Virus record (IMG/VR): IMGVR_UViG_2912869438_000005 | Location: 1 to 64,000 of that record | Reading direction: 5' to 3' (one strand) | DNA from: an uncultured virus (IMG/VR IMGVR_UViG_2912869438_000005) | Lineage: Duplodnaviria; Heunggongvirae; Uroviricota; Caudoviricetes | Length of the DNA stretch: 64,000 bases | Shown: positions 5,095-59,508 of the stretch, piece after piece | How the letters are laid out: the number at the start of each line of letters is the position of its first letter | Numbering within the stretch: the first letter of the stretch is position 1 | The notes under the pieces: generated by a model | Told to the model about the DNA's origin: nothing | What the model saw: only the letters and a program-made list of their open reading frames with translations | The model's database searches: none | Made by a program: the position numbers and the translations under genes

Positions 5095-7734
5095 TTAATT
5101 TTGTTTAAATGCTTCCCAAATATATTTAACATTTAGTTTGTTTCCGCGAGTCTTGCTGTCTGAGCCCGTAATAAAATAATTCAAATCCAAAGAGCCGTAT
5201 GTTTTATCTCCTCCTTCAAGATATGTCCCTGCTTCTCCATTCTGTATTGAGTAGCCTCCTAAACTACTTTGTATCATTAGCGTTGAATCAGTGGGGGAAG
5301 TGGAATAAATCTTTACCATAGTAGGAATGAAGTTAAGGCTGATTGATCTACTTGGTTTTCCATCACCAATATATTCTCCGGATACGTATTGAGGGGGAGA
5401 GGGGAGATCAGACTTTAGGACATATTCAGAAGCATTATAGCCGCCCAATTGAGTTGCACTTCCCGTAATTGAAGCATCAATTGTTCCTGTTTCATCTCGA
5501 ACAGCTATCGTGTTAGGAGAGGATGCTATCTCAGCACTATATCCATTTAACGAATCTGCAGAAGATACAGTTTGTTCAATCCACTTTTCACCATCGTAAA
5601 GTTCTTGTTTATTAGTTTTAGGATTGATCCAAACAGTGTTGACATCTGGATTTTCTGGTCTTTCTTCAGAAACAGCTTGGATTAGTCCATTTACTCGCCC
5701 ATTGACTACTGCAATAGCAGAAGGGAGGTAGGGGTTTTCTGTTATGTGTTTTGACTGAACAATGTCAGAGAGAATGATTCCAGTTCTCTCAATATCTGCA
5801 TCAACTCTGCGGTAGGCTCTAACACCCACAGTGTAGTATTTATTCGAGGCAAGTCCCGTAAATTTATAGGAGCGCTTGTCATACTTCACATTAACCATTT
5901 CTTCGTGGCTCATCTTAGAACCAAACACATATTCATCAGGTGATTCACTGGAGTAGAGATAAACTTCAAACCCATCAATGTTGTATCTATCCTCATCAGA
6001 ATCTGGGTATTCCCATTTTAAAATAATATCTACTGAACCATTATCATTCAGCTCATGAGTAATTGCGGTTCCGTCTGATGCGACGGTAGGAGCTGCAACT
6101 GGGGTAGAAATTCGATCATTCCGGATTTTAAAATTCTCAGCGGTATTCATCCAGTCAATTTTTCTAATTGCATAGTCGTTGTTTATATGACTGACTGTAT
6201 AAACGAGTTTGACCATCTTTTCTTTAACAGTTTCAACTCGTTTTGAATTTGACACAGTCAAATTAATCTTATTAGCCTCAAAGTCAAAGGTCATTTCAAT
6301 TACTTTTGTTTTAACATCAATACCAAGGCGATCATGTTGTACTCTAACAATATCTCCGATAGATAGCCTGTCCCAATTCTGATGTTCACTTATGATTCCA
6401 AAGAAATTAACAATGCTCATTGTAATATTGACAGGAGGGGTGTTGCGCTTTTTCATTTCCTCAAGTCCGGCTTCATAAAGGTCAGTTTCATCATAAAGAT
6501 TGTCATTAGCCCATTCTTGCTCATTTATAAATTCCGCCAATTCTTCTTTGAGCTCATCATTAAGATGACTTTCAAGCGTCAATTTTCCCTTTAAAAGGGT
6601 TATTTTATCTTGAATGTCCTTAATCAGTTTTTCTTTTTCTTCAATTTCCTTCTTTTTCGATTCAATTTCAATTTCTTTAGCTTTTCGCTCTTTTATAAGC
6701 TCGGCAGTTGGATCTTTCGCTTCTGTTGCTACTGCAATTTTATCTAAAATAATCTTGTATTCTAAATCAAGCTTTGCCTTTTCTGCGTTAAGTGTTGAGA
6801 GTTTCTTTTCTTCCTCGGTTTGTCGAGAGAGAAGGGAAGAGAATGTTTCAGTTTGAGAATCGATGAACTCATTAAAATCGAGGATTGCATGACATAATTC
6901 ATCGCTCATTTCGTAACTGTGAGTTATCACCTTGCGATCTTTATCTCGCTCAAATGGATAAAGAAAATATGTGAAATCTTCTATGTAAGCTTGTCCAGTT
7001 GGATTAGCAGCGTTTATTGAGAGATCATCTTTCCCAGTTACATAAAGCCTGGTACAGACTTCTTCAAGTTCTTCAGTATCTTCTATTGAATCCAAATACT
7101 GACCGTATTTTAATCTCATCCCTTTGTAATTTGATACTTCATCTTCAGTATAGAAATGAACCTTTTTTTCTATGGTGTCAAATACAGGGACAGCTTCGAA
7201 TGTCTCGCATATTTTAAAGAGAAAGTCTAACTTTGTAGAAGAGGTGATATCAAAACTGCGGAATTTTTCATTGAATAGAGGATTTATGTATCCGGCTTTC
7301 CAGTTTGTGTTTGCAAAACAGTCATTTGTAACCTGTTGCATATTATAGGAGGTGACTTCATATCTTCTAACTTTTCGATAGCTCAATTGATGTCCAAGTG
7401 ACATGCACGTAAATGTAATTAAATCATTGTCTGCACCAGTTTTTTGCTTTGTTTTAATAATGAACCATTCATCTTTGAAGTTGTAGGCAGAAAGCTTGAC
7501 GAGCCTTCGTAATTTCAGGCGCTTGAGATGAGGATTCTTAACCCATTGTTTGTCTATTTCAATTTTTAAAGGTACTGCAAAAGACAACTCATTGATTTCT
7601 CCTAGTCTTAATGTCAAATTAACATTTGAGATATCGACAAGATTTGCGATTTTCTTTTTATTAGCTTTAGCAAGTGAAAGTTTCGGCTTTCTTAAATTAA
7701 ATGATCGCGTTACTTGTTGAAGCAGTAAAAGCAC
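5095..7734 (-). CDS. yomG: tail-associated (Tal/hub-like) protein with coiled coil and Fn3 domain
   Basis: Prophage tail domain (TRLYVTGKD), Fn3-like segment; probable start is CTG at 7725. Confidence 0.8.
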   Translation of the reverse strand: MLLLLQQVTRSFNLRKPKLSLAKANKKKIANLVDISNVNLTLRLGEINELSFAVPLKIEIDKQWVKNPHLKRLKLRRLVKLSAYNFKDEWFIIKTKQKTGADNDLITFTCMSLGHQLSYRKVRRYEVTSYNMQQVTNDCFANTNWKAGYINPLFNEKFRSFDITSSTKLDFLFKICETFEAVPVFDTIEKKVHFYTEDEVSNYKGMRLKYGQYLDSIEDTEELEEVCTRLYVTGKDDLSINAANPTGQAYIEDFTYFLYPFERDKDRKVITHSYEMSDELCHAILDFNEFIDSQTETFSSLLSRQTEEEKKLSTLNAEKAKLDLEYKIILDKIAVATEAKDPTAELIKERKAKEIEIESKKKEIEEKEKLIKDIQDKITLLKGKLTLESHLNDELKEELAEFINEQEWANDNLYDETDLYEAGLEEMKKRNTPPVNITMSIVNFFGIISEHQNWDRLSIGDIVRVQHDRLGIDVKTKVIEMTFDFEANKINLTVSNSKRVETVKEKMVKLVYTVSHINNDYAIRKIDWMNTAENFKIRNDRISTPVAAPTVASDGTAITHELNDNGSVDIILKWEYPDSDEDRYNIDGFEVYLYSSESPDEYVFGSKMSHEEMVNVKYDKRSYKFTGLASNKYYTVGVRAYRRVDADIERTGIILSDIVQSKHITENPYLPSAIAVVNGRVNGLIQAVSEERPENPDVNTVWINPKTNKQELYDGEKWIEQTVSSADSLNGYSAEIASSPNTIAVRDETGTIDASITGSATQLGGYNASEYVLKSDLPSPPQYVSGEYIGDGKPSRSISLNFIPTMVKIYSTSPTDSTLMIQSSLGGYSIQNGEAGTYLEGGDKTYGSLDLNYFITGSDSKTRGNKLNVKYIWEAFKQN

Positions 7735-8553: not shown

Positions 8554-11500
8554 CTATATTTTAACCCCTCTAGCTGATACAATATTAAATGCTTCTCCTA
8601 AGAATTTGTTTGCATCATCTTTAGATCCAGTCATCTTATCTACATTAAAGTTAAAGTTAAATGTTTGATTACTTGTCGTTTGATTAGATGCAGCACTAGG
8701 GGAAGGGAGTGTAGCTTTTGTTTGAATATCTCCAAAAATGTTTCGGGTTAGCTCAACAATTTTCAGGACATTGCTTGTATCAGCTTTATTTAAAACAAGT
8801 TCTTGTTCATGGAGCATTGCAAGCCTTCCTGAACTACCCCAATTTCCTGTATAGCCACCCACATCAAAAGAGGCAACTTTTTTACCTGTGGTGTTTCCAG
8901 AGACCACAACATTTAAAGCTTTGGAGGCTTCTTTAAGCTTATCAATTAGATTGTTGGAGATACTCTTACCAATAGACTCCATATTGCTGTTAATGAACTT
9001 TGAAAACTCATTGAGCTGTTTGGCGATATCGGTAATCTTCCCATCCATCAACTTATCCTCAAGCTTTTTGAATGCTCTTTCGTCGTTGACAAGATCATCA
9101 TACTTGGTGTTTATTGATTTCTCATCTTTTTCAAGTTGATCCTGTAATGCTTCTTTACGTTTAGAATTCTCACGATCCTTTAAAAATTCATCAAGATCTT
9201 GTTGTTGTTCTTGGAGTTGCTTATCTAAATCTTTTAGTTTTGCTTTTGCCTCATCTGAATCATCGAGAGACAGTTTGCTTATCTTGTCTTTTGTTTCTTG
9301 AATGGCATCCTGTTTTTCTTTAAGGGATTTCTGGAACTTGGCTTCGTCGTCTTCTTTATCAATTTCATCGATTATATCTTGAGTTGCTTTTCGATGTGCT
9401 TCCAGCTCAATATCACGCATCTTTTCGTACATTTCTTTATAAATTGAAACGACTTCATCTGCGAGTGATTTATAGATATCTTTAATGGACTTCTTGGTGT
9501 TATAAAGCTCCAGGTTGTATTCCTTCTGTTTATCCTTCCAGTTTTCAATTTCCTCTGTGATTTGTTTCTGGATGTCAGGGAAACCTTTAGCTGCCTTTTT
9601 CTGTGCTTCAAGTTGCTTAATGTACTTTTTTGCTTCAGCTTGTTGCTGTTGAATCAATTTTATTTGCTGACTGTAGTACTTGACTTTTTGATTGTCATCC
9701 TCAGTCATTTGAATCTTGATATCAACATCTTTAAGCTTGGATTCAGTTTTCTTAACAGATTTCTCAATATTATTGAGTGTCTGGTCAACCTGTGACTGAA
9801 TTAGTTCCCCTTGTAGCTCTCTAACTTGGTCTTGCAAGGAGATGAGATCTAATTTAGCCTGTTTCAGCTCTTCTCTTAGTTGATCGCGTTGAGCATAGTT
9901 AAGTTTTTTATTTGTTTTTAACTCTTTGTTGATCCAGTTAATTTTTTGTTGTTGAATTTTGCGTTGCTCGTCAACAGCTTTCTTCTGCTCATTTGTATAT
10001 TTGCGAAATTCCTTGCTGTCAGAAAGGTAACGTTTGGCTAAAGACTCATTTTTAGCAATTTTGACTTCTAGATCAGATTTCCGTTTATCAAATTCATCAA
10101 GCTTGGATTGAACCAATTCGTATTGCAGGTCTTGAATTTGATCATTAACTGCATCTAAATCACCTTGCAAACCGATTAAATCCGATTTTGCCTGTGAAAG
10201 GGCTTGTTGTCTTTCAGCTTCAGACTGAGAAAGATCTGAGGTTAAACCCTGCATATACTTTTCTGGGTCAATTGGTTTGCCATTTTGCTCAATTTGTAGG
10301 TGGAGGTGGTTTCCTGTTGAGTGTCCAGTGCTTCCTACTTTACCTATTGTTTGGCCAGCAGATACAACATCACCTTTCTTAACTTTAAGGCCGTTTTGCA
10401 TGTGCATATATTTTGCAACTGTTCCATCATCCTGTTGAATGACAACCCAGTTACCTGCTGTTTTTGAATAGGTAGCGGTTATGACTTTACCAGCTTTCAA
10501 TGCTTTTACAGGGGTTCCAGCTTTAGCGGCTAAGTCTAATCCTTTGTGAGGGGTGGAGCGGAGACCTCTTTCTTGCGCTCCAAACTTTGAACTTACTCTA
10601 AATCCATTGCTGCTCGTGTAATAATTTGCGATCTTGGAGGTCGCTGTAGACAAGCTCTTATTGTAGTTAGAAAGAATTATTTTTACGTAATTTTGCGTTT
10701 CTTTAAAAGGAGGAATACCACCATATTTTATTACGTTACCTGGCCCCGCGTTGTAAGCAGCTAAAGCTTTCTCGATGTTCCCTCCAAACTTGTTTAACAT
10801 TTGAGCAATATATTTGGTACCGCCCATAATGTTTTGGTAGGGATCATATGCATTTTTTACACCTAGACTTTTTGCAGTACCAGGCATGAGTTGCATCAAA
10901 CCCATTGCTCCAGCGCCAGAACGAGCTTTGGCATTGAAGTTTGATTCTTGTTTAATAATCGCAGCGATTAGTGCAGGGTCAACACCATATTTGCTTGCTG
11001 CAGCATTAATATAAGAAGAGTATTTTCCGGAATATGATCCTCCAGAAGAATATGAGCCTGATGAAGAACCAGAAGAGGAAGAGGAGGTAACAAGTCCAGT
11101 TTGAGGAATATAACCAGATTTGATTTGCTGTTTCAGCAGTTTAATCTGATCTTGCATTAGCTTTTTCTTACGCTCTAATGCCTTGATTTCCTTATTGATT
11201 GCGTCTCTGTATTTTTGTGACCATTTAGGATAATCATTGGTTTGCTTGTTGTATTTCTCAATTTCTGCATTTACTTTTTCAAGGGCTTCTTTATATTTAT
11301 CAATGACGTATTTGGATTTCTCAGTTTCTTTGCTGGCTTTCTCTTGTTCATCAGAATATTTCTCAAGGGACGTACCAACTTCATTTAAAGATGAGTTGGC
11401 CAATTCAGCCATTTTATCCAGATCTTCTAACTGTCCAGTGACGTCGCTCAACTCGTTTATTTCTTTAATGACTGGCATTGCCATCTGGATATTGCCACTT

Positions 11501-14500
11501 TCCATTAAAGTGTCTACTTCTTTTCTCATTTTGGAAAGATTGGCTTGTGCATCGGCAACAGTCTGGATTGACTTGACTTCTAAACCATAGTTCTTTATTT
11601 TCTTAACTGTGGCGTTTGCCTGGTTGATTAGATCCTGTTTAACCGACTTTTGCATATCATTGTATGCTTTAAGTTTTGCATCACGTAGTTTTATGATAGC
11701 ATCTCGGTTTAATTTAACTACGCCGTTTTCAACACTAATAGCTCCAGCCAAGTCTTTTTCTTTTTGAACCAGTTTCATTGCTTCAGCAGCTGAGATGCTT
11801 TTTCCTTCAGCCATTTTCTCAAGCAGTTCATTGAGAGGGGAGATGGAGTCAGCAAAAGAATCATATGCTTCATTTTGAAGGGCAGAAATAGCTTGTTCTG
11901 TTTGTTGAGAAGCCACCAAATCGTCCATTACAGCTTTTATTGCCTCTAGATCGCCTTTGGCATCCTTTAGCTTTTGACTTAAATCTTCAACTTCTCCTGT
12001 TAATTCGTTTACACCTTCACCATTTTCATCCCAAGTGATCTTTGCAGAATCAGCAGCATTTTTTGTGGAGTCTATAGCATTCTTTAGGTCATCATAAGAT
12101 AAGGAAAGTTTGTCAGCTTCATCAGAGCCTTTGATTTGTTGGTTAATTAAATTCTGAAGTGCTTGAGATGCTCTTGAGAAATCAACTTTATTTCCTGATT
12201 CTAATGCTTTCTGAATGTCATCCATGTATTTTGAAACATTAATGGAAAACGACTCTAATTCATCAGAAGTCATCTTACTAAAGTCAATTTTATTGAAGGC
12301 TTCGTTGATATCTTTGGTTAGCTGAGGGTTGATTTTAATGGAGTTATAAGCGTCAACAGTTTGCAGCACTTGCTCTCTAAGTTTAGCTTGAGAACTAGAT
12401 AACTTCTGATTGACTTGAAGAGCTTGTTGTTCAGCTTTAATCCCAAAATTTTTATAATCACTGTCGCTGTCGAAGATATCCCAGAATGGCCGATCATTAT
12501 TTTTATAATGGTCTGCAACTTTTTGGTACTCCTTCATTTCATCAGTCAGGTTACTGATATCACTGAGGGTTTCTTTAAAGTTGCTATTTGCGCCAGTTTG
12601 AATGTCTTTTTTGTTTAATTCGGCTAATTCTTTGGTGTATTTTATGGCATCTTCTAACGCTTCATTATTTTTAATGATGGCATTACCTTGGGAGTCATAG
12701 CCAGAAATCAAATTAGGGAACGTTTGTGCTAATTGTTGCGTGACCTGTAGATATTCTTGCTCCTTGTCAGGGGAAAGGGAACCGTTATCTTTTGCTTTTT
12801 GCAGCTCTTTATATTTTTGGATTAACTGATCGGTCTGTTCTTTATTTGTGGTTATTGCTTCGACACTTTTCTTTTGTGACTCTGCAAGCTTTTCTTGTTC
12901 TTGTTTAGCATCAGAAAAAGCAGAGACAAGTTTTTCGATTACGAAGCCTAAAGCCATGAAACCAGCACCGACAACCGTCGCAACCATTAATCCCCTAAGT
13001 GCAGTTTTCAATAGATTCGATGCTACTGCTGCACGAGTCATACCTGTACTTAGGCCAATGCTTGCAAGTGTTTCTTGTCTCATTGCAGAAGTACCGAGCA
13101 CAAGTGTGGTTGCAAGTGTTCTTACATTTTTACTAAGAAGAAGAGTGGCAGTGCTTGTTAAAGCAAAGATACTCGGTAAGAATCCAATGGTTTTCGTTAT
13201 ACCTGTCCCTAATTGAAGGAGGTCTTTTAAAGATTCTGTAAGGGCGATAATCCCATCTGAAATAACGGCGTCCCCTGCGGCCAGGCCGAGTTCTGTCCAC
13301 GCGTTTGATAATCGATTTATTCTTGCCTGGAGACTTTCTGAATATTTTTCCTGTTCTTTCCATGCGCTTCCGGTTGATTCCGCAGCCGTTGTTGCCGAAT
13401 CCTGGGCAAGCTGGAATTGGTTCATAAGTGCATTAAATCGAGATAACTGGTAAATACCGGAAACACCTATTGCAGTTTGCCGTTTTTGTGCCTCAGAAAG
13501 ACCGTCCCATTTGGAACTAAGCTCTTCAATTAGTTCACTTGCGCTTTTAGCTTCTCCACTCGCTGTTCTAACAGAGATGCCAATTTGATCTAAAGCTTTT
13601 ATTGAGCTTTCATTGTTTCCGATTCTCGCAAAGATTGTTTTTAAGGCGTTCAATTCTGTTACTTTCACCAAAAGGCTACTGACCATATAATATGGCGGTG
13701 AGGCACTTCAACCTCACTCTCTATGTTTCCATAGAGTTCAGACTGTCGCTTCACATTTCTGTGTCTCTTCACTCAGTCGTTCAGGCTGCCATTACGCTTG
13801 CCCCTTGTCGTCCTCGACTAAACGTTAGGATTTCCAAGTCAATCAGAAGAGATTTAATGTCAGCAATCATTTTACCGACAATGTTACCGGATTCACGCGT
13901 AGTGCTACCAATGGCGGTAGTATATCCTATTAAGTCGTTTAATTCAACACCAAAGGTTGCTGCTGTTGAGCCAGCTTTTCTAATAGAGTTCGCTAGATCT
14001 TGTGTTGTTCGTATCTACCCTCGGTTTCCCGATACTTAAGTAGGGGACTAGACCATATCTTTATCCATTCACAGGATAGTCAGCACTTCGATTTAAGGGG
14101 ATTTCGCCCACTTGTATTTCAACAAGCCCTACTCCTGTTGCGGAATTACACCGCCAAGGGATGGTCGTTGCACCTTCATTTTTAACAAATGCTTGGCACA
14201 GGATTACCGTATCAACTTGACTTAGGCTTTCCCTGTTAGCAATATGATTAATAAGCCATTTCCTGCTTAAACTGACCGTTCATATCACACCCAATTTGGT
14301 TCACTGACTTATCACTAACACATTTCTGTGTTAGGCGGCTAAGTTAACCGCATAGTTGTTGTCGACTTCATTTAATTTCGAATAATACCCTCGGTTTCCC
14401 GATACTTAAGTAGGGGACTAGACTATATCTTCATCCCATTGGGATGCCCAGCGCTTCGAACAGTAGCTCAAAATCTGCTCTACACCACAAAAGTTAGTCG

Positions 14501-16045
14501 TTACACCTTCCTAAAATAGGCTTGGCACGGTATTGTCATAGGATCCCTCCCTTAGAGTTCCACCGTTAGCATCCTTAGAAGAGGACACACCCCTGAGCAA
14601 TAGGGTTCACTGGGTTTACGCTTATACATTACTGTATAAGGCGACTATAATTAATCGGCAATTGAAATTGAGTCTTCTGCAGCAACATTAAAGTTTAACA
14701 TTGCACTTGTCAAAGTATTGACTGTTTCATCTACGGACAGATTCGATACGTTTTGAAGAACTTCTGCAGTTTTAGTAACGCTTCCTAATTCAGCTTCATC
14801 AAATCCCATTCTCCCAAATGAACTTGTCATTTGAAGAATATCTGAAATCTTGTTGGAAAGCTGATCTCCCATCTCAACTGCTTCCTGCAACATATCATTG
14901 AACTTATAATTAGGCTCATCCATAACCCTGCGAATTTCAGTCATAAGTGTGTCAATTTGAATAACTTGATCGACCATCGACTGCAGCCCGCGAATTGGCC
15001 CCATGAACATAGTCATACCAGCAAACCACACCGGTATGCGGGCGGCAGCGACTTCTAACTGTTCAACAAACCCCATTGTCTGCCTTGTAGTAGCAGCAAT
15101 GTTAGAGGACATTTCCCTAAACTGCATATTAAGACTAGCCATCTGATTTCTTAGATTAGGTGTCCTTGCAGACAATTGATTAACTGAATTCAAATACTGC
15201 TGAAGTTGTAAATTACTTGCCTGGCTCAATGAGCTGCCGTATCTGTTTTGTAAGTTCTGAGTATTTACCTGGGCTTGTCTTCTATATAGTTCTAACTGCC
15301 TTTCAAGCTCTTTAGTCTTTGCAACTGCTGCTGATTTGTCATCAAGAGTCTTAAGCTTGACTCTGAGTGCTTCAATTTGTTCTGTAGACTGAGCTAAATT
15401 AATTTTTCTTCCAAGAGAGGAGAGGGTGACTTCAGACAGTTGCCCTTGCTCTTTTAGTCTTTGTAAGCTTACTCTAAGCTGTTCGATTGCTTTTCTTTGT
15501 TGATCAAGATTTGTTACAGTGGTTGAGTTTTTAATATTCCCATTTTGGTCGAGATTGTACGTAATATCCTTAAAACCATCACGATTTTTTTGAGTAGTGC
15601 CTGTCTTAATGCCTTGAGCATTTTGCCTTTCAATTATCTTTTGAGCTTGGCCAAGCTTTTGAATTTCAGAGGTTAATTTTGCTGTTTCCTGAGCTTCTTG
15701 ACGAACCTTTTGATTTCGATTATCAATCGTCTTAATTTCTCGCTGAAGTATTTCACCATTCTTTTTGTGCTGCTGAATGATTTTTTCAGTTGTCCCATCA
15801 GAATTCTTAATGACCGTTTGTGTTTCTTTGACTGTTTGATTGTAATTCTTAAGATTTTTTTGATATGCTTCAACTGCAGAAGAGAATTCTTTGAGGGTTT
15901 TTAAAGCGGAAGCATCAATGTTTGTTTTGAGTTGAAGGGAGTTTAACTTAGATTGTAGTGTTTTAAGCTGTTTGTTGATTTGTTCGACTGATTGAGCGGA
16001 GGTGTCGGCAACTGGAGTAACTACAATTTTCAATTGTTGACTCAA
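8554..16045 (-). CDS. cwlP: tape measure protein with lytic transglycosylase and M23 peptidase domains; four exons (16045-14654, 14378-14347, 14009-13874, 13650-8554), 2218 aa after splicing
   Basis: Joined exons read [49 protein letters not shown] motifs ESNFN, GLMQLMP, YNAG; M23 motifs HKGLD, HLH. Confidence 0.93.
13651..13873 (-). mobile_element. group I intron 3 of cwlP (223 nt, no ORF)
   Basis: P1 UGUCGGU/GCUGACA; P3 UCUCUUC/GAAGAGA; P7 GACUG/CAGUC; P8 CACA-GAAA-UGUG; terminal G. Confidence 0.92.
14010..14346 (-). mobile_element. group I intron 2 of cwlP (337 nt, no ORF), splits a Val codon GT/A
   Basis: P1 GCGGU/GCCGC; R GCAACGACCA, S AAGAUAUGGUC; terminal G; reading frame restored. 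Confidence 0.93.
14016..14423. repeat. 38-bp identical direct repeat (14016-14053 and 14386-14423), the shared 3' region of introns 1 and 2
   Basis: taccctcggtttcccgatacttaagtaggggactagac occurs twice. Confidence 0.95.
14379..14653 (-). mobile_element. group I intron 1 of cwlP (275 nt, no ORF)
   Basis: Exon ends in U, intron ends in G; P1 CGAU/GUCG with U.G pair; R GUAACGACUA, S AAGAUAUAGUC; P3 CCCAGUG/CGCUGGG; P8 CAUCCC/GGGAUG. Confidence 0.93.
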
Positions 16046-16091: not shown

Positions 16092-16122
16092 AAAAATAAA
16101 AAACTCTGCATTCAAGCAGAGT
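16092..16122 (-). terminator. intrinsic terminator just upstream of cwlP
   Basis: ACTCTGC/GCAGAGT stem followed by a U-rich tract on the minus strand. Confidence 0.65.
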
Positions 16123-16134
16123 CAAGAAAATCAT

Positions 16135-16386
16135 TTATTTTATGTATAGCGGTTCATCTTCTTCATCAATTTCTTCAGTATCCTCAATTTCAAGCCCCAT
16201 ATTAGAGGCTTGAAGGGTTATCTTATCACCGTCAAAATTTGTTAATGTTATTTCTTTAAGTTCCTCAAATTCACCAAAGTCCAATAAATTATATTCCGTA
16301 AATCGTTTAGCTTCATCCTCAGAGTTTCCAGGTGTTGTTTGGAAAGCGGCTATAGTTAACGTCAAGTGGTTAATGTATTTTTTCAT
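16135..16386 (-). CDS. hypothetical acidic protein
   Basis: GGAGAGGG RBS before ATG at 16386 (MKKYINHL). Confidence 0.65.
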   Translation of the reverse strand: MKKYINHLTLTIAAFQTTPGNSEDEAKRFTEYNLLDFGEFEELKEITLTNFDGDKITLQASNMGLEIEDTEEIDEEDEPLYIK

Positions 16387-18043
16387 TTTCCCTCTCCTTG
16401 ATGGATTCTTGAAAAGATAACTTTTTTCGTTTGACAGCAAGCTGTTTATTTCTACAAACTACACTACAGAATCTTTGTTGTGAGAAACTTTTTTTACGCT
16501 AAATTCTTTATTGCAACAATTACAATTTTTAGTCATATTACTTGAAAGTTTTTGAAAAGCAGCGAAACACAAATGGCTACAGAAATGATTCCGTGACCTT
16601 TTATATAAAGAAGGAATCGTTTCACACCTTTTTTTACAATAATCACAATTAAAGGTTATGGCCTTCTTTGAATAATTTTGTTTACATTTAGTTGAACAAA
16701 AAATATTTTTTTGTATCCTATTTTCGACTAAATCAGCTTTATACTTATTTACAACAATCTCTTTATTGCAATTGGCACAAAATAAAATTCTTTTTTGTTT
16801 TTGTCTATATTCTTTCGAACAATTCAGTGAACAAAAAAGCTTATTAAACTTATCATAATAGTGTTTGTATCGAATTTTCTCTTTATTGCAATTGAGACAG
16901 TTGAATTTTATATGTTTTTCTGGCTGATAATTATTTGCTTTACTTCGTGTGGTAGTATCCGTAATTTTTGATAGTTCTTCAATGCTCCATTCCATATACG
17001 GTCTTATGATTTCATTTTTCAGTGTCAATTCGTCTTTTTTTAGGGAATAGTTAAAGCTATGATAGTTCATAAGCTTCCCCTTGTTGTTTATAAAGTCATC
17101 AATCAATTTTTCACACAGTCTAATATTGTTATAAATATCGTCTTCCCATAAATAAAGAACATAATATTTTTTATTTCGCAAATAAGTATTTTTTCTTTTG
17201 TCATATTTTATTCGTTTCAATTGAATGTCATAATTGATATTTTTATAGTATCGATTATCTGCGTGCCAAAAACCTCCATTGATTTCTATTAAAAGATTAT
17301 AATTTGTTAGAAATAAGTCAACAGACCACTTTCCCAATACTTTTTCTTTTTCAAATTTGATTTCTTTAGTGTTTAATAATTTATCTATGATTACTTGAGG
17401 TTTCGATTCAGTAAAACTAATTTTACCGTTAGTTAAATTGGACAAGAGAATTTTTCGATTTCTGTTTATTACGTCCTGCTGTTTCACATATACTTCACTA
17501 TGCCAATTATTGCGACAGTCTTTATTACAAAAGTTCATATTCCTACTTTTCAAGTATGCCGCGGTTCTTTTTAACGTTTTACCGCACCAACCACAAGATA
17601 TCGTATACCTTTTAACATAATTAGGGTTGTTTGCTCCCGATTTATTTTCACTTTCATAATCACCTTTACATTTTCTACTACAAAACCTACTTGATTCAAA
17701 TAGTGATTTTTTTATTTTATATTTTTTGTTGCAAAATGCGCACTGTTTATAAACGATTCCTTTATTCGATCTCTGTTTCCCTACAAATCTATTACCACAA
17801 ATATCTGTACAAAAATGAGTCTGGAGTCTGTTTTTTAATTGCGGCGTTATATTTTCTACTGAATTTTTTTCCACAATAATCACATATGCACTGTACCATC
17901 ACCACACTACCAATAGACAGGTCTGATATGTTGTTGACTTTAAAAGCTTCGCCGCTATTGGTGAAAGTGTATCCTCTCTGCTCATAATGTTTTCTATTTG
18001 CTCCATTCCATTTCACAATCACTTGCTGATCTTTAATTATCAA
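16370..18043 (-). pseudogene. free-standing Vsr/DUF559-like putative homing endonuclease with many CxxC..FCSxxC zinc fingers; two homopolymer frameshifts
   Basis: ESKPQ..VDLF..IEINGGFWHAD..YDKRKN..LYLWEDDI core; removing 1 nt at 17831-17836 and adding 1 nt at 16489-16495 gives one ~557-aa ORF from TTG 18043. Confidence 0.75.
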
Positions 18044-18059: not shown

Positions 18060-18269
18060 TCAAAATCCATCCCAAGAAATTTTCACATTATGTACCTTGA
18101 CTGTCTCTAAAACTTTTCCATTCTTGTGCAACAGAGTCAACTCTGTCAAATCAACTCGATCATCAGACATGGTATAGTATGAATCCAGTATGGCTAGATC
18201 TTGAGTTGTAGCATTAGAGATTCGAGATATTTCTAAATTCATCATGCCGTAAACTGTCTTACTAAGCAT
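18060..18269 (-). CDS. hypothetical protein
   Basis: 69 aa, GAGGAG RBS. Confidence 0.6.
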   Translation of the reverse strand: MLSKTVYGMMNLEISRISNATTQDLAILDSYYTMSDDRVDLTELTLLHKNGKVLETVKVHNVKISWDGF

Positions 18270-18430
18270 TGTTAACAGCTCCTCAATGTATATTTAGTTC
18301 GACTTCACGTACCTAATATACACATAAGTGAATAACTTGTCAACATTATATATACTTTATATTTGACATATCGATTATTTGGTATGGTTTGTGGTATAAT
18401 AACTATAGATTTTCAAAAAGGAGATTTGCG

Positions 18431-18664
18431 GTGAAGAAATTAAGAATCAGCTTTAAACCCATGGAAATAACTTTGATACGGAGAGATAAAAATAGAACTG
18501 ATCTGAAGAAGGATTTAGGAGTATCACCATCAACCTTAGCGAAAATGTCTAAAGGTGAAGTGGTTTCATTGGCAGTCATTCTGAAAATCTGCGAATACTT
18601 AGAATGCAATATTGAAGAAGTGGTAGAGTTTGTTGAAGATGAAACTGTAGATGCAAATAAATAA
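18431..18664 (+). CDS. Cro/C1-type HTH regulator
   Basis: LKKDLGVSPSTLAKMSKGE..LKICEYLECNIEEVV; AGGAG RBS before GTG at 18431. Confidence 0.85.
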   Translation: MKKLRISFKPMEITLIRRDKNRTDLKKDLGVSPSTLAKMSKGEVVSLAVILKICEYLECNIEEVVEFVEDETVDANK

Positions 18665-18673
18665 GTCGCCCAA

Positions 18674-19372
18674 TTAATGAGCGACTTGATTTGCTTTTCT
18701 TATGGCTAAGTCCATAACTCCTTGCCAGTACTCAGCTTTCTTAAGAGCAGTTTTGATTATGTCACTGTCTTTTTTATAACCAACAGGATTATAACCAGGA
18801 GAATCATGTCCGGGGAGAAAATCAATGTAGTGAACAGGGTTTTTAAAATCTTCCACTGTAATTTTCATGGTAATTGATTTCACCATTGTAACTTGCTTTG
18901 ACCCAGAAGAAAGACCGCCAATTATTGCCCCAACTCCTCCAGCCAAAACTCCACCAATGGCTGCACCTGTAATCTGCTCACCTCTAGCGGTTTTCGATAC
19001 TGTTTCGTTGTCTAATGCAATAGATGACTCAACTATCTGTGAAAAAGGGTAGGAGAACTCAATAATTTCATTCTGTTCATTCCGTTCATATAACTTTAAA
19101 ATACCTTTAGATTCGTTGAACGATATTTTTTTGTTGTAATTAGTAAAAGAACCGTCGGCTTTGAAGTCTTTATCGTATTCTTTTAGCGTTTCAACATTGT
19201 TTCTAAATTTATTAGCTAATTGTTTATTTCGTATTTTATACGGCTCGGTTGCCAAAAGTAATACTCCCAGTATGGTGAGTATCACAGCAAAAGCTCTCCA
19301 TCCGTCCATAAAATAGAAGAAGGCTGTCAATACTCCATATAAAATATAAAATAAAACCTTATTATTCACCAA
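18674..19372 (-). CDS. yomJ: membrane protein with glycine-zipper segment
   Basis: Two N-terminal TMs, GGVLAGGVGAIIGGLS; recalled similarity to SPbeta YomJ. Confidence 0.75.
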   Translation of the reverse strand: MVNNKVLFYILYGVLTAFFYFMDGWRAFAVILTILGVLLLATEPYKIRNKQLANKFRNNVETLKEYDKDFKADGSFTNYNKKISFNESKGILKLYERNEQNEIIEFSYPFSQIVESSIALDNETVSKTARGEQITGAAIGGVLAGGVGAIIGGLSSGSKQVTMVKSITMKITVEDFKNPVHYIDFLPGHDSPGYNPVGYKKDSDIIKTALKKAEYWQGVMDLAIRKANQVAH

Positions 19373-59410: not shown

Positions 59411-59475
59411 ACAGTCGTGGCGGCGACGTTAAATAGGCATTAAGCCGCCAGCGTTCCCCACATTGGGGAGGTTGC
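59411..59475 (+). ncRNA. pistol self-cleaving ribozyme
   Basis: P1 GUCG/CGAC; loop UGGCGG pseudoknot with CCGCCA; UUAAAUAG; P2 GCA/UGC; UAAG; GCG; P3 UUCCCCA/UGGGGAG; GU cleavage site at 59471-59472. Confidence 0.9.
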
Positions 59476-59508
59476 AACAGGAATAACTCTATATTTCATC
59501 GCAATAAA

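Follow-up and report, generated by a model that had tools for sequence, protein, structure and literature searches.

Collaborative homing is a leading idea for how mobile group I introns originate, and it is represented by very few examples. Those described include F-CphI with the psbA intron of cyanophage S-PM2, cases in T3/T7-like phages (PMC3984707, PMC2988022), and the terL intron of ICP1 with its adjacent T5orf172 gene (PMC10448857). For free-standing enzymes, cleavage at a distance of hundreds or thousands of bases from the encoding gene is documented (PMC2988022). Vsr-like homing genes are known in both intron-encoded and free-standing forms (PMC2677866, PMC12350094), and I-Bth0305I cuts beside its own intron insertion site, in the intron-minus allele only (PMC3239194). 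The spread of the TMP-IVS introns without a nuclease has been called puzzling (PMC2504315). The accessible text of an SPbeta review mentions reductase introns only (PMC8270828), and our literature search of openly accessible text listed no account of cwlP/yomI introns or of a zinc-finger/Vsr family targeting tape-measure (TMP) genes. The locus described here lies in a window of 64,000 nucleotides, the whole stretch of DNA that was analysed, which corresponds to positions 1 to 64,000 of a virus record of 127,460 bases.

The cwlP locus and its three introns

By gene order and DNA similarity, the phage is classified as SPbeta-like. Within the protein cluster of the nuclease, those members that are named derive from Bacillus licheniformis or from the B. 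subtilis group, and a host from these is therefore likely. In SPbeta (NC_001884), yomJ directly precedes yomI/cwlP, with no cassette and no yomI intron. Since the two genes abut there, the nuclease cassette in the window represents an insertion between them. The features of the locus are as follows.

18674..19372, minus strand: yomJ-like gene (similarity to SPbeta)
18389..18664, plus strand: divergent Cro/C1-type HTH gene, present in some relatives only (Pfam, locus comparison)
18315..18343, minus strand: sigma-70-type promoter-like site heading the cassette (11/12 consensus positions, a consensus match only)
18060..18269, minus strand: 69-aa ORF, left edge of the nuclease slot (ORF list, locus comparison)
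16370..18043, minus strand: free-standing gene for a Vsr-like endonuclease, with two breaks and seven zinc-finger units (Pfam, homolog alignment)
17817..17830, minus strand: 7-nt tandem duplication disrupting the N-terminal reading frame (contig comparison)
17116..17367, minus strand: DUF559/Vsr-like catalytic core (D196, H213 and D222 equivalents conserved, E170 position occupied by Q)
16489..16495, minus strand: 7-base A run with a frameshift (common to the 525/534-aa forms)
16135..16386, minus strand: acidic 83-aa ORF, right edge of the nuclease slot (ORF list, locus comparison)
16102..16123, minus strand: terminator-like hairpin ending the cassette ahead of cwlP (hairpin search)
8554..16045, minus strand: cwlP/yomI tape-measure gene with SLT and M23 domains, in four exons (Pfam, yomI comparison)
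14379..14653, minus strand: ORF-less group I intron 1, 275 nt, likely a passenger (Rfam, yomI comparison)
14010..14346, minus strand: ORF-less group I intron 2, 337 nt, likely a passenger (Rfam, yomI comparison, RNA-library contigs)
13651..13873, minus strand: ORF-less group I intron 3, 223 nt, at YomI codon 522/523, likely the collaborator (Rfam, yomI comparison)

The cassette comprises the promoter-like site, the 69-aa ORF, the nuclease gene, the acidic 83-aa ORF, and the terminator-like hairpin. Promoter-like sites of this type number 13, against 13.5 expected, and no hairpin covering the nuclease start was found. The 69-aa ORF has no match in Pfam, PHROG or Atlas and no BLAST similarity to the 83-aa ORF. 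Its homologs lie just 5' of free-standing nucleases, BRO-N or other slot genes in Bacillaceae phage loci (L005, L022, L056, L071, L084, L089, L093, L094, L158, L176, L199, and L234). A distant paralog of the acidic 83-aa ORF is present in the same phage (G000 C1 78688-78957, plus strand). Elsewhere in the window, a Pistol ribozyme was detected at 59413-59476 (plus strand; Rfam 61.2 bits, gathering score 34.5).

The introns were delimited against the intron-less yomI of SPbeta and SPbetaL2, giving cwlP exons at 16045-14654, 14378-14347, 14009-13874, and 13650-8554, whose pieces are 59-93% identical to YomI. A U precedes each intron and a G terminates it, and excision restores an open frame (800 codons checked). 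The Rfam Intron_gpI model matches the three at E=1e-8, 2e-10, and 4e-5, with scores of 27-49.5, all under the gathering score of 50. Folded together with its flanks, intron 3 gives a z of -3.2 and forms a P1-like stem across the 5' splice site. No coding-strand ORF of at least 50 aa starts inside any of the three, and lengths of 223-337 nt leave no room for a nuclease, which confirms the preliminary description of the introns as encoding none. The separation of 1.7 kb that it gave between the nuclease and the introns is accurate for intron 1 (16370-14653); intron 3 lies 2.5 kb away.

Evidence of splicing was sought in contigs from four RNA-library runs. For intron 2, a single X20 contig contains the exact 337-nt skip at a low depth of 2.4. 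A 336-nt circle was recovered from X16, in which the terminal G is joined to the second intron base, at a depth of 131 compared with 16-19 beside it. Such RNA circles mark group I splicing. For introns 1 and 3, the four runs contained no spliced joint distinguishable from an intron-less relative. Joints in X18 that skip intron 3 or introns 1 and 2 were rejected as splicing products, since the required U is absent and other letters differ. They are explained more simply as intron-less relatives, and X18 contains intron-less alleles alongside intron-bearing ones. In these SPbeta-like phages, cwlP appears to be a spliced gene, which ORF calling reads as fragments.

Related introns were observed outside the three cwlP sites of the window. 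An intron 89-91% identical to intron 1 occupies another cwlP site, codon 594, in L141 (8287-8562) and L142 (7998-8270), suggesting a possible move between sites. Further matches of intron 1/2 type lie in the genome of the same phage at G000 C1 101803-101903, 102722-102770, and 112861-112893. The first two bracket about 0.8 kb, enough for an intron-encoded ORF, and a form with an 818-letter insert occurs in the RNA-library contigs. In Geobacillus virus E3 (GVE3, L128), an apparently unannotated ORF-less group I intron at 6014-6325 splits a TMP gene annotated as two genes.

The nuclease gene and its catalytic core

The nuclease gene extends on the minus strand from a TTG start at 18043 to the final stop at 16370 and is interrupted by two frame breaks. 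Its initial assignment as a Vsr/DUF559-like gene with about seven finger units agrees with the Pfam DUF559 match and with the alignment to P0040, a fully open natural homolog of 554 aa present on 5 contigs. In this alignment, P0040 contains seven CxxC...FC-x3-C units, three N-terminal and four C-terminal to the core. The 7-nt duplication splits off the initial ~75 codons, leaving a 474-aa ORF (17883-16459), and is absent from contigs of runs X15, X16, and X18. The frameshift at 16489-16495 removes the second half of the seventh finger, and the X15 and X16 contigs are identical to the window at this A run. The 474-aa ORF retains the core and five complete fingers.

Sequencing error was rejected as the cause of the two breaks: the 474-aa product of the duplication is found on 13 contigs, and the A-run frameshift is common to most cluster members and to contigs of two runs. 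The 525- and 534-aa forms, which lack the first break, are present on 25 and 21 contigs. More independent truncations occur within this nuclease type (P0002, P0042, and P0053-P0055), as does a 2-nt core insertion in X16. Since the normal start frame is lost, though the catalytic residues and five fingers are kept, the copy in the window is probably weakened or dead, and decaying.

The 474-aa ORF matches Pfam DUF559 at E=8e-5 (22.9 bits, cut-off 20.6), with Vsr at E=1e-3, under its cut-off, and zf-FCS at E=0.06. A profile built from 24 homologs has the catalytic domain of I-Bth0305I (3R3P) as its top PDB match, at E=1.6e-5. Conservation was assessed in 74 non-redundant cores, comprising the family loci together with the window, L133, L142, L150, and L176, merged at 90%. 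Among the matches listed, the equivalents of D196 and H213 and an extra acidic residue (E) are each present in 74/74 cores, the window included, and the D222 equivalent is D in 73 and E in one. The E170 position, read as the first letter of the motif, is Q in 59, H in 13, and E in 2 of these listed cores. In the available account of I-Bth0305I, E170 is only a possible catalytic residue (PMC3239194). P0040 has no NUMOD motif at E<=0.01, with zinc-finger repeats in their place, and no match to DUF4379 or CapR. From these features, the nuclease is expected to work like an EDxHD enzyme, and it departs from strict membership of that group at the E170 residue and in the NUMOD2 motifs. Distant homologs in nucleotide-reductase genes keep E at the E170 position. 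Zinc-finger/Vsr-like ORFs interrupt ribonucleotide-reductase genes in four Bacillales genomes (L259-L262, the only loci looked at).

Distribution of the nuclease family and of intron 3

Scans with the nuclease and with its alignment yielded 43 genome loci and, on the viral side, 3 plus 79 loci (the best 80 of 172 confirmed stretches). Three duplicate contigs were excluded, as were the 22 genome hits L104-L125, which were weak (E above 1e-13) and had no TMP adjoining. Among the matches listed, a TMP domain lies beside or around the nuclease in 98 of the 100 strong-hit loci (L001-L103 less the 3 duplicates), the two exceptions being a 5-kb fragment and one divergent hit. The 74 cores among these matches divide into 29 free-standing upstream of TMP, 35 in introns of the site-3 cluster, on or only a few codons from the intron-3 site of the window, 9 in introns at a look-alike Val-Gly/Asn site, and 1 elsewhere in TMP. 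The look-alike site is near YomI codon 471/472, about 50 codons upstream of site 3. At least 12 intronic members are inserted exactly at the intron-3 junction of the window, and others 6 or 8 nt downstream. In eight exact-site introns compared by BLASTN, the 3' end resembles that of intron 3 (72-100% over 12-80 nt). One locus (L018, 125-6380) carries two family members, one free-standing upstream and one in a TMP intron near codon 450.

In the annotated phage collection, a search for the nuclease gave 12 weak records, all with coverage under 80%, and no close homolog. Order-wide searches, each of 301 genomes, matched TMP in 51 and the nuclease in 21; only 2 strong members were among them, both already known, and SPbeta-like prophages were too few for a co-occurrence analysis. 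A metagenome scan returned 45 hits, 8 of them with TMP, which were mostly copies or fragments and stand outside the family counts.

These family members lie at TMP genes, either free-standing or in introns at site 3, and intron 3 of the window occupies the same site. As cleavage by I-Bth0305I falls beside its own intron site and leaves the intron-plus allele intact, the intronic members would mark the site-3 stretch as the target of the family. We therefore regard it, on sequence grounds, as fairly probable that the gene in the window is a free-standing Vsr-like homing endonuclease, whose intact form cuts cwlP of related phages at or near the intron-3 site, and that nuclease and intron 3 have spread together. 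The collaboration proposed at the outset for all three introns is narrowed to intron 3, which has homologs of the nuclease in introns at its site; no family member among the matches listed resides in an intron at the intron 1 or intron 2 site. Introns 1 and 2 were also rejected as partners on mapping grounds: the upstream intron-encoded group maps to the Val-Gly/Asn site between them, which reads Val-Asp in the window.

Co-occurrence was scored in a sample chosen without reference to the nuclease or the introns. A scan with exon sequence only gave 69 viral loci, all TMP, and after removal of those with less than 5 kb of upstream DNA (L150, L156, L163, and L203), 65 SPbeta-like loci were scored. 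Intron 3 is present in 4/4 loci with a free-standing core and in 12/61 without one (one-sided Fisher p=0.0027). After 95% dereplication, with six loci lacking a usable downstream frame dropped and the window added, the figures are 5/5 and 8/20 (p=0.024). Phylogenetically independent pairs number only 4, of which a mean of 2.7 agree and 0 disagree (median p=0.25). L136/L155 retains only a 77-aa C-terminal remnant of the nuclease, with the core gone, and has no intron 3; in L136 the junction at site 3 is unchanged. Intron 3 accompanies the free-standing core in all four core-bearing loci and in the window, and it occurs at 12 loci in the absence of this nuclease; any partnership is not an obligate one.

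Across the wider family, the association is partial: among 28 scorable free-standing homologs, 11 have a site-3-cluster intron and 17, all distant, have none. These 17 favor a different reading, in which the nuclease, self-immune by sequence, would cut another, polymorphic site within cwlP or close to it, with the introns gained separately in a hot-spot gene. Such separate gain would suit the cwlP introns that accompany unrelated nucleases or none (L132 and L134), as well as GVE3, which has a TMP intron and was unmatched in the annotated-phage nuclease search, and TMP introns without nucleases are known (PMC2504315). However, the intron-encoded homologs point to the site-3 cluster as the family target, and the constant presence of intron 3 in the five close carriers also speaks against this reading, which we consider unlikely.

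The history of the association was approached through a tree of the nuclease cores, obtained by a quick search and having no reliable root. Free and intronic states are interleaved on it, with at least 15 changes, 3 of them forced by branches with support of at least 95. The clade of the window (support 96) contains 21 free and 11 intronic rows, and its 9 site-3-cluster intronic rows are all at the +8 nt site, downstream of the intron-3 junction. One could read the same present-day cutting with the history reversed, such that intron 3 once encoded the nuclease and lost it, the free-standing gene being an escaped or later copy; an alternative of this kind has been raised for ICP1 (PMC10448857). 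Intron-encoded forms are the largest class (45/74 among the matches listed), the tree lacks a reliable root, and intron 3 spreads at 12 loci without this nuclease, all of which would accord with a reversed history. Against it, intron 3 is compact, with 223 nt and no visible ORF remnant, is 84% identical to an ORF-less intron beside a free-standing homolog (L176), and intronic rows are the minority in the supported clade of the window. A reversed history accordingly appears improbable.

The slot upstream of cwlP is not reserved for one gene. Among 14 close cwlP relatives (80-97% identity), all carry one or more cwlP introns, irrespective of the slot occupant. The fillers are four distinct zinc-finger/Vsr-type genes (the window included), HNH-repeat-bearing and other unrelated putative nucleases, a BRO-N protein, or none. 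Unrelated putative nucleases directly upstream of TMP were noted in L130, L131, L138, L153, and L185, and comprise HNH_repeat-bearing proteins of 604-778 aa, a 618-aa protein without a Pfam match, a DUF4379/NUMOD protein of 690 aa, and a GIY-YIG type. The BRO-N antirepressor occupies the slot in L134 and L135. This occupant, the promoter-like and terminator-like sites of the cassette, and the interference by an intron endonuclease reported in phage PhiPA3 (PMC11620839) could suggest that the protein is kept because it serves the phage, as an interference nuclease against the tail gene of rivals or as a DNA-binding regulator. The recurrent frameshifts and truncations and the free exchange with unrelated nucleases speak against lasting selection of this kind, and interference would also arise as a by-product of the same homing cut, which leaves a phage-serving role very improbable. 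The independent breaks and the replacement by unrelated nucleases fit the turnover expected of homing genes.

Sequences around site 3 were compared between carriers and non-carriers. L133, which has intron 3 and the nuclease, and L134, which has neither, differ at 9/360 exon positions; 5 of the 9 differences fall within 7 nt of the site, all of them silent (binomial 8e-6, a test chosen after the fact). This clustering may be the footprint of local conversion or of escape. The same test is significant in 2/6 allele pairs, both including L133, and the signal is absent in 4/6. The GGT codon before the junction is retained in 2/17 intron-free nuclease carriers, compared with 36/52 intron-free loci without the nuclease; its loss in carriers fits self-immunity by sequence and is confounded by kinship. 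The window exons upstream of intron 2 are 90-100% identical to those of L129-L131 and L140, which carry other nucleases, and one continuous tract of donor sequence reaching from nuclease to intron 3 is therefore not visible.

Proposed homing model and relation to known systems

In the model that we favor, with cutting at the intron-3 site, the intact enzyme would bind a long site through its fingers and cut intron-minus cwlP near codon 522, and intron 3 would split the recognition site and thereby protect the carrier genome. Repair of the cut cwlP in an SPbeta-like phage, co-infecting or resident, would use the carrier as template and copy intron 3. With resection extending 2.5-4.2 kb upstream, introns 2 and 1 would be copied too, together with the nuclease cassette, in which case introns 1 and 2 would be passengers. 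Conversion over short tracts would transfer only intron 3 and would account for its occurrence without the nuclease. In lineages that have no site-3 intron, changes in the sequence of the site would give protection, a form of intronless homing. The best reading is that the collaboration is facultative and involves intron 3 only, with introns 1 and 2 hitchhiking, given the 12 loci with intron 3 alone and the 17 free-standing homologs without a site-3 intron. Against the model, free-standing members could have shifted their target, and some have introns at other TMP sites.

More broadly, and as a tentative proposal that falls short of probable, the data may outline a widespread, TMP-dedicated zinc-finger/Vsr-like family in large Bacillota siphophages in which the three proposed steps in the birth of a mobile intron coexist at one homologous site: a free nuclease with a self-immune target, a free nuclease with a shielding ORF-less intron, and an intronic nuclease, with repeated switching among them. 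The slot would be contested by unrelated nucleases, and intron-minus rivals would carry clustered silent escape changes. Such a system could explain how tape-measure introns that encode no nuclease pass from one phage to another.

Compared with the described systems, the locus combines familiar and distinct elements. As in the collaborative pairs, the nuclease gene is separate from an ORF-less intron yet linked to it, lying 2.5 kb upstream of intron 3 (223 nt). It differs from them in being Vsr-like with FCS-type zinc fingers and, as far as sequence indicates, in targeting a tape-measure gene. With I-Bth0305I and the EDxHD enzymes (PMC3239194, PMC2677866), the family shares the core, the D196/H213/D222 equivalents with the acidic residue, and the occurrence of both intronic and free-standing forms. 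In contrast to what is described for I-Bth0305I, it has Q or H at E170, zinc fingers flanking the core rather than an N-terminal NUMOD2, and TMP rather than recA as host gene. The outgroup of CapR/DUF4379-repeat and EDxHD/Vsr-like proteins (PMC12350094) likewise joins zinc-module repeats to a Vsr-like core in phage introns, whereas in the present family the repeat is zf-FCS/TRASH-like, the core is central, and the host gene is TMP. The TMP-IVS1-3 introns of Bacillus cereus-group prophages (PMC2504315) are also multiple group I introns of a tape-measure gene, most of them nuclease-free; they differ in belonging to other phages, in including one HNH-family gene, and in that the accessible part of that report describes no adjacent free-standing nuclease. 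Relative to the yomJ-yomI locus of SPbeta, the gene order is alike, and the cassette and yomI introns are present in the window only. Collaborative homing itself is known already; what appears new here is that the family occurs free without an intron, free with an intron, and intronic, so that all three proposed evolutionary states would be represented at one site.
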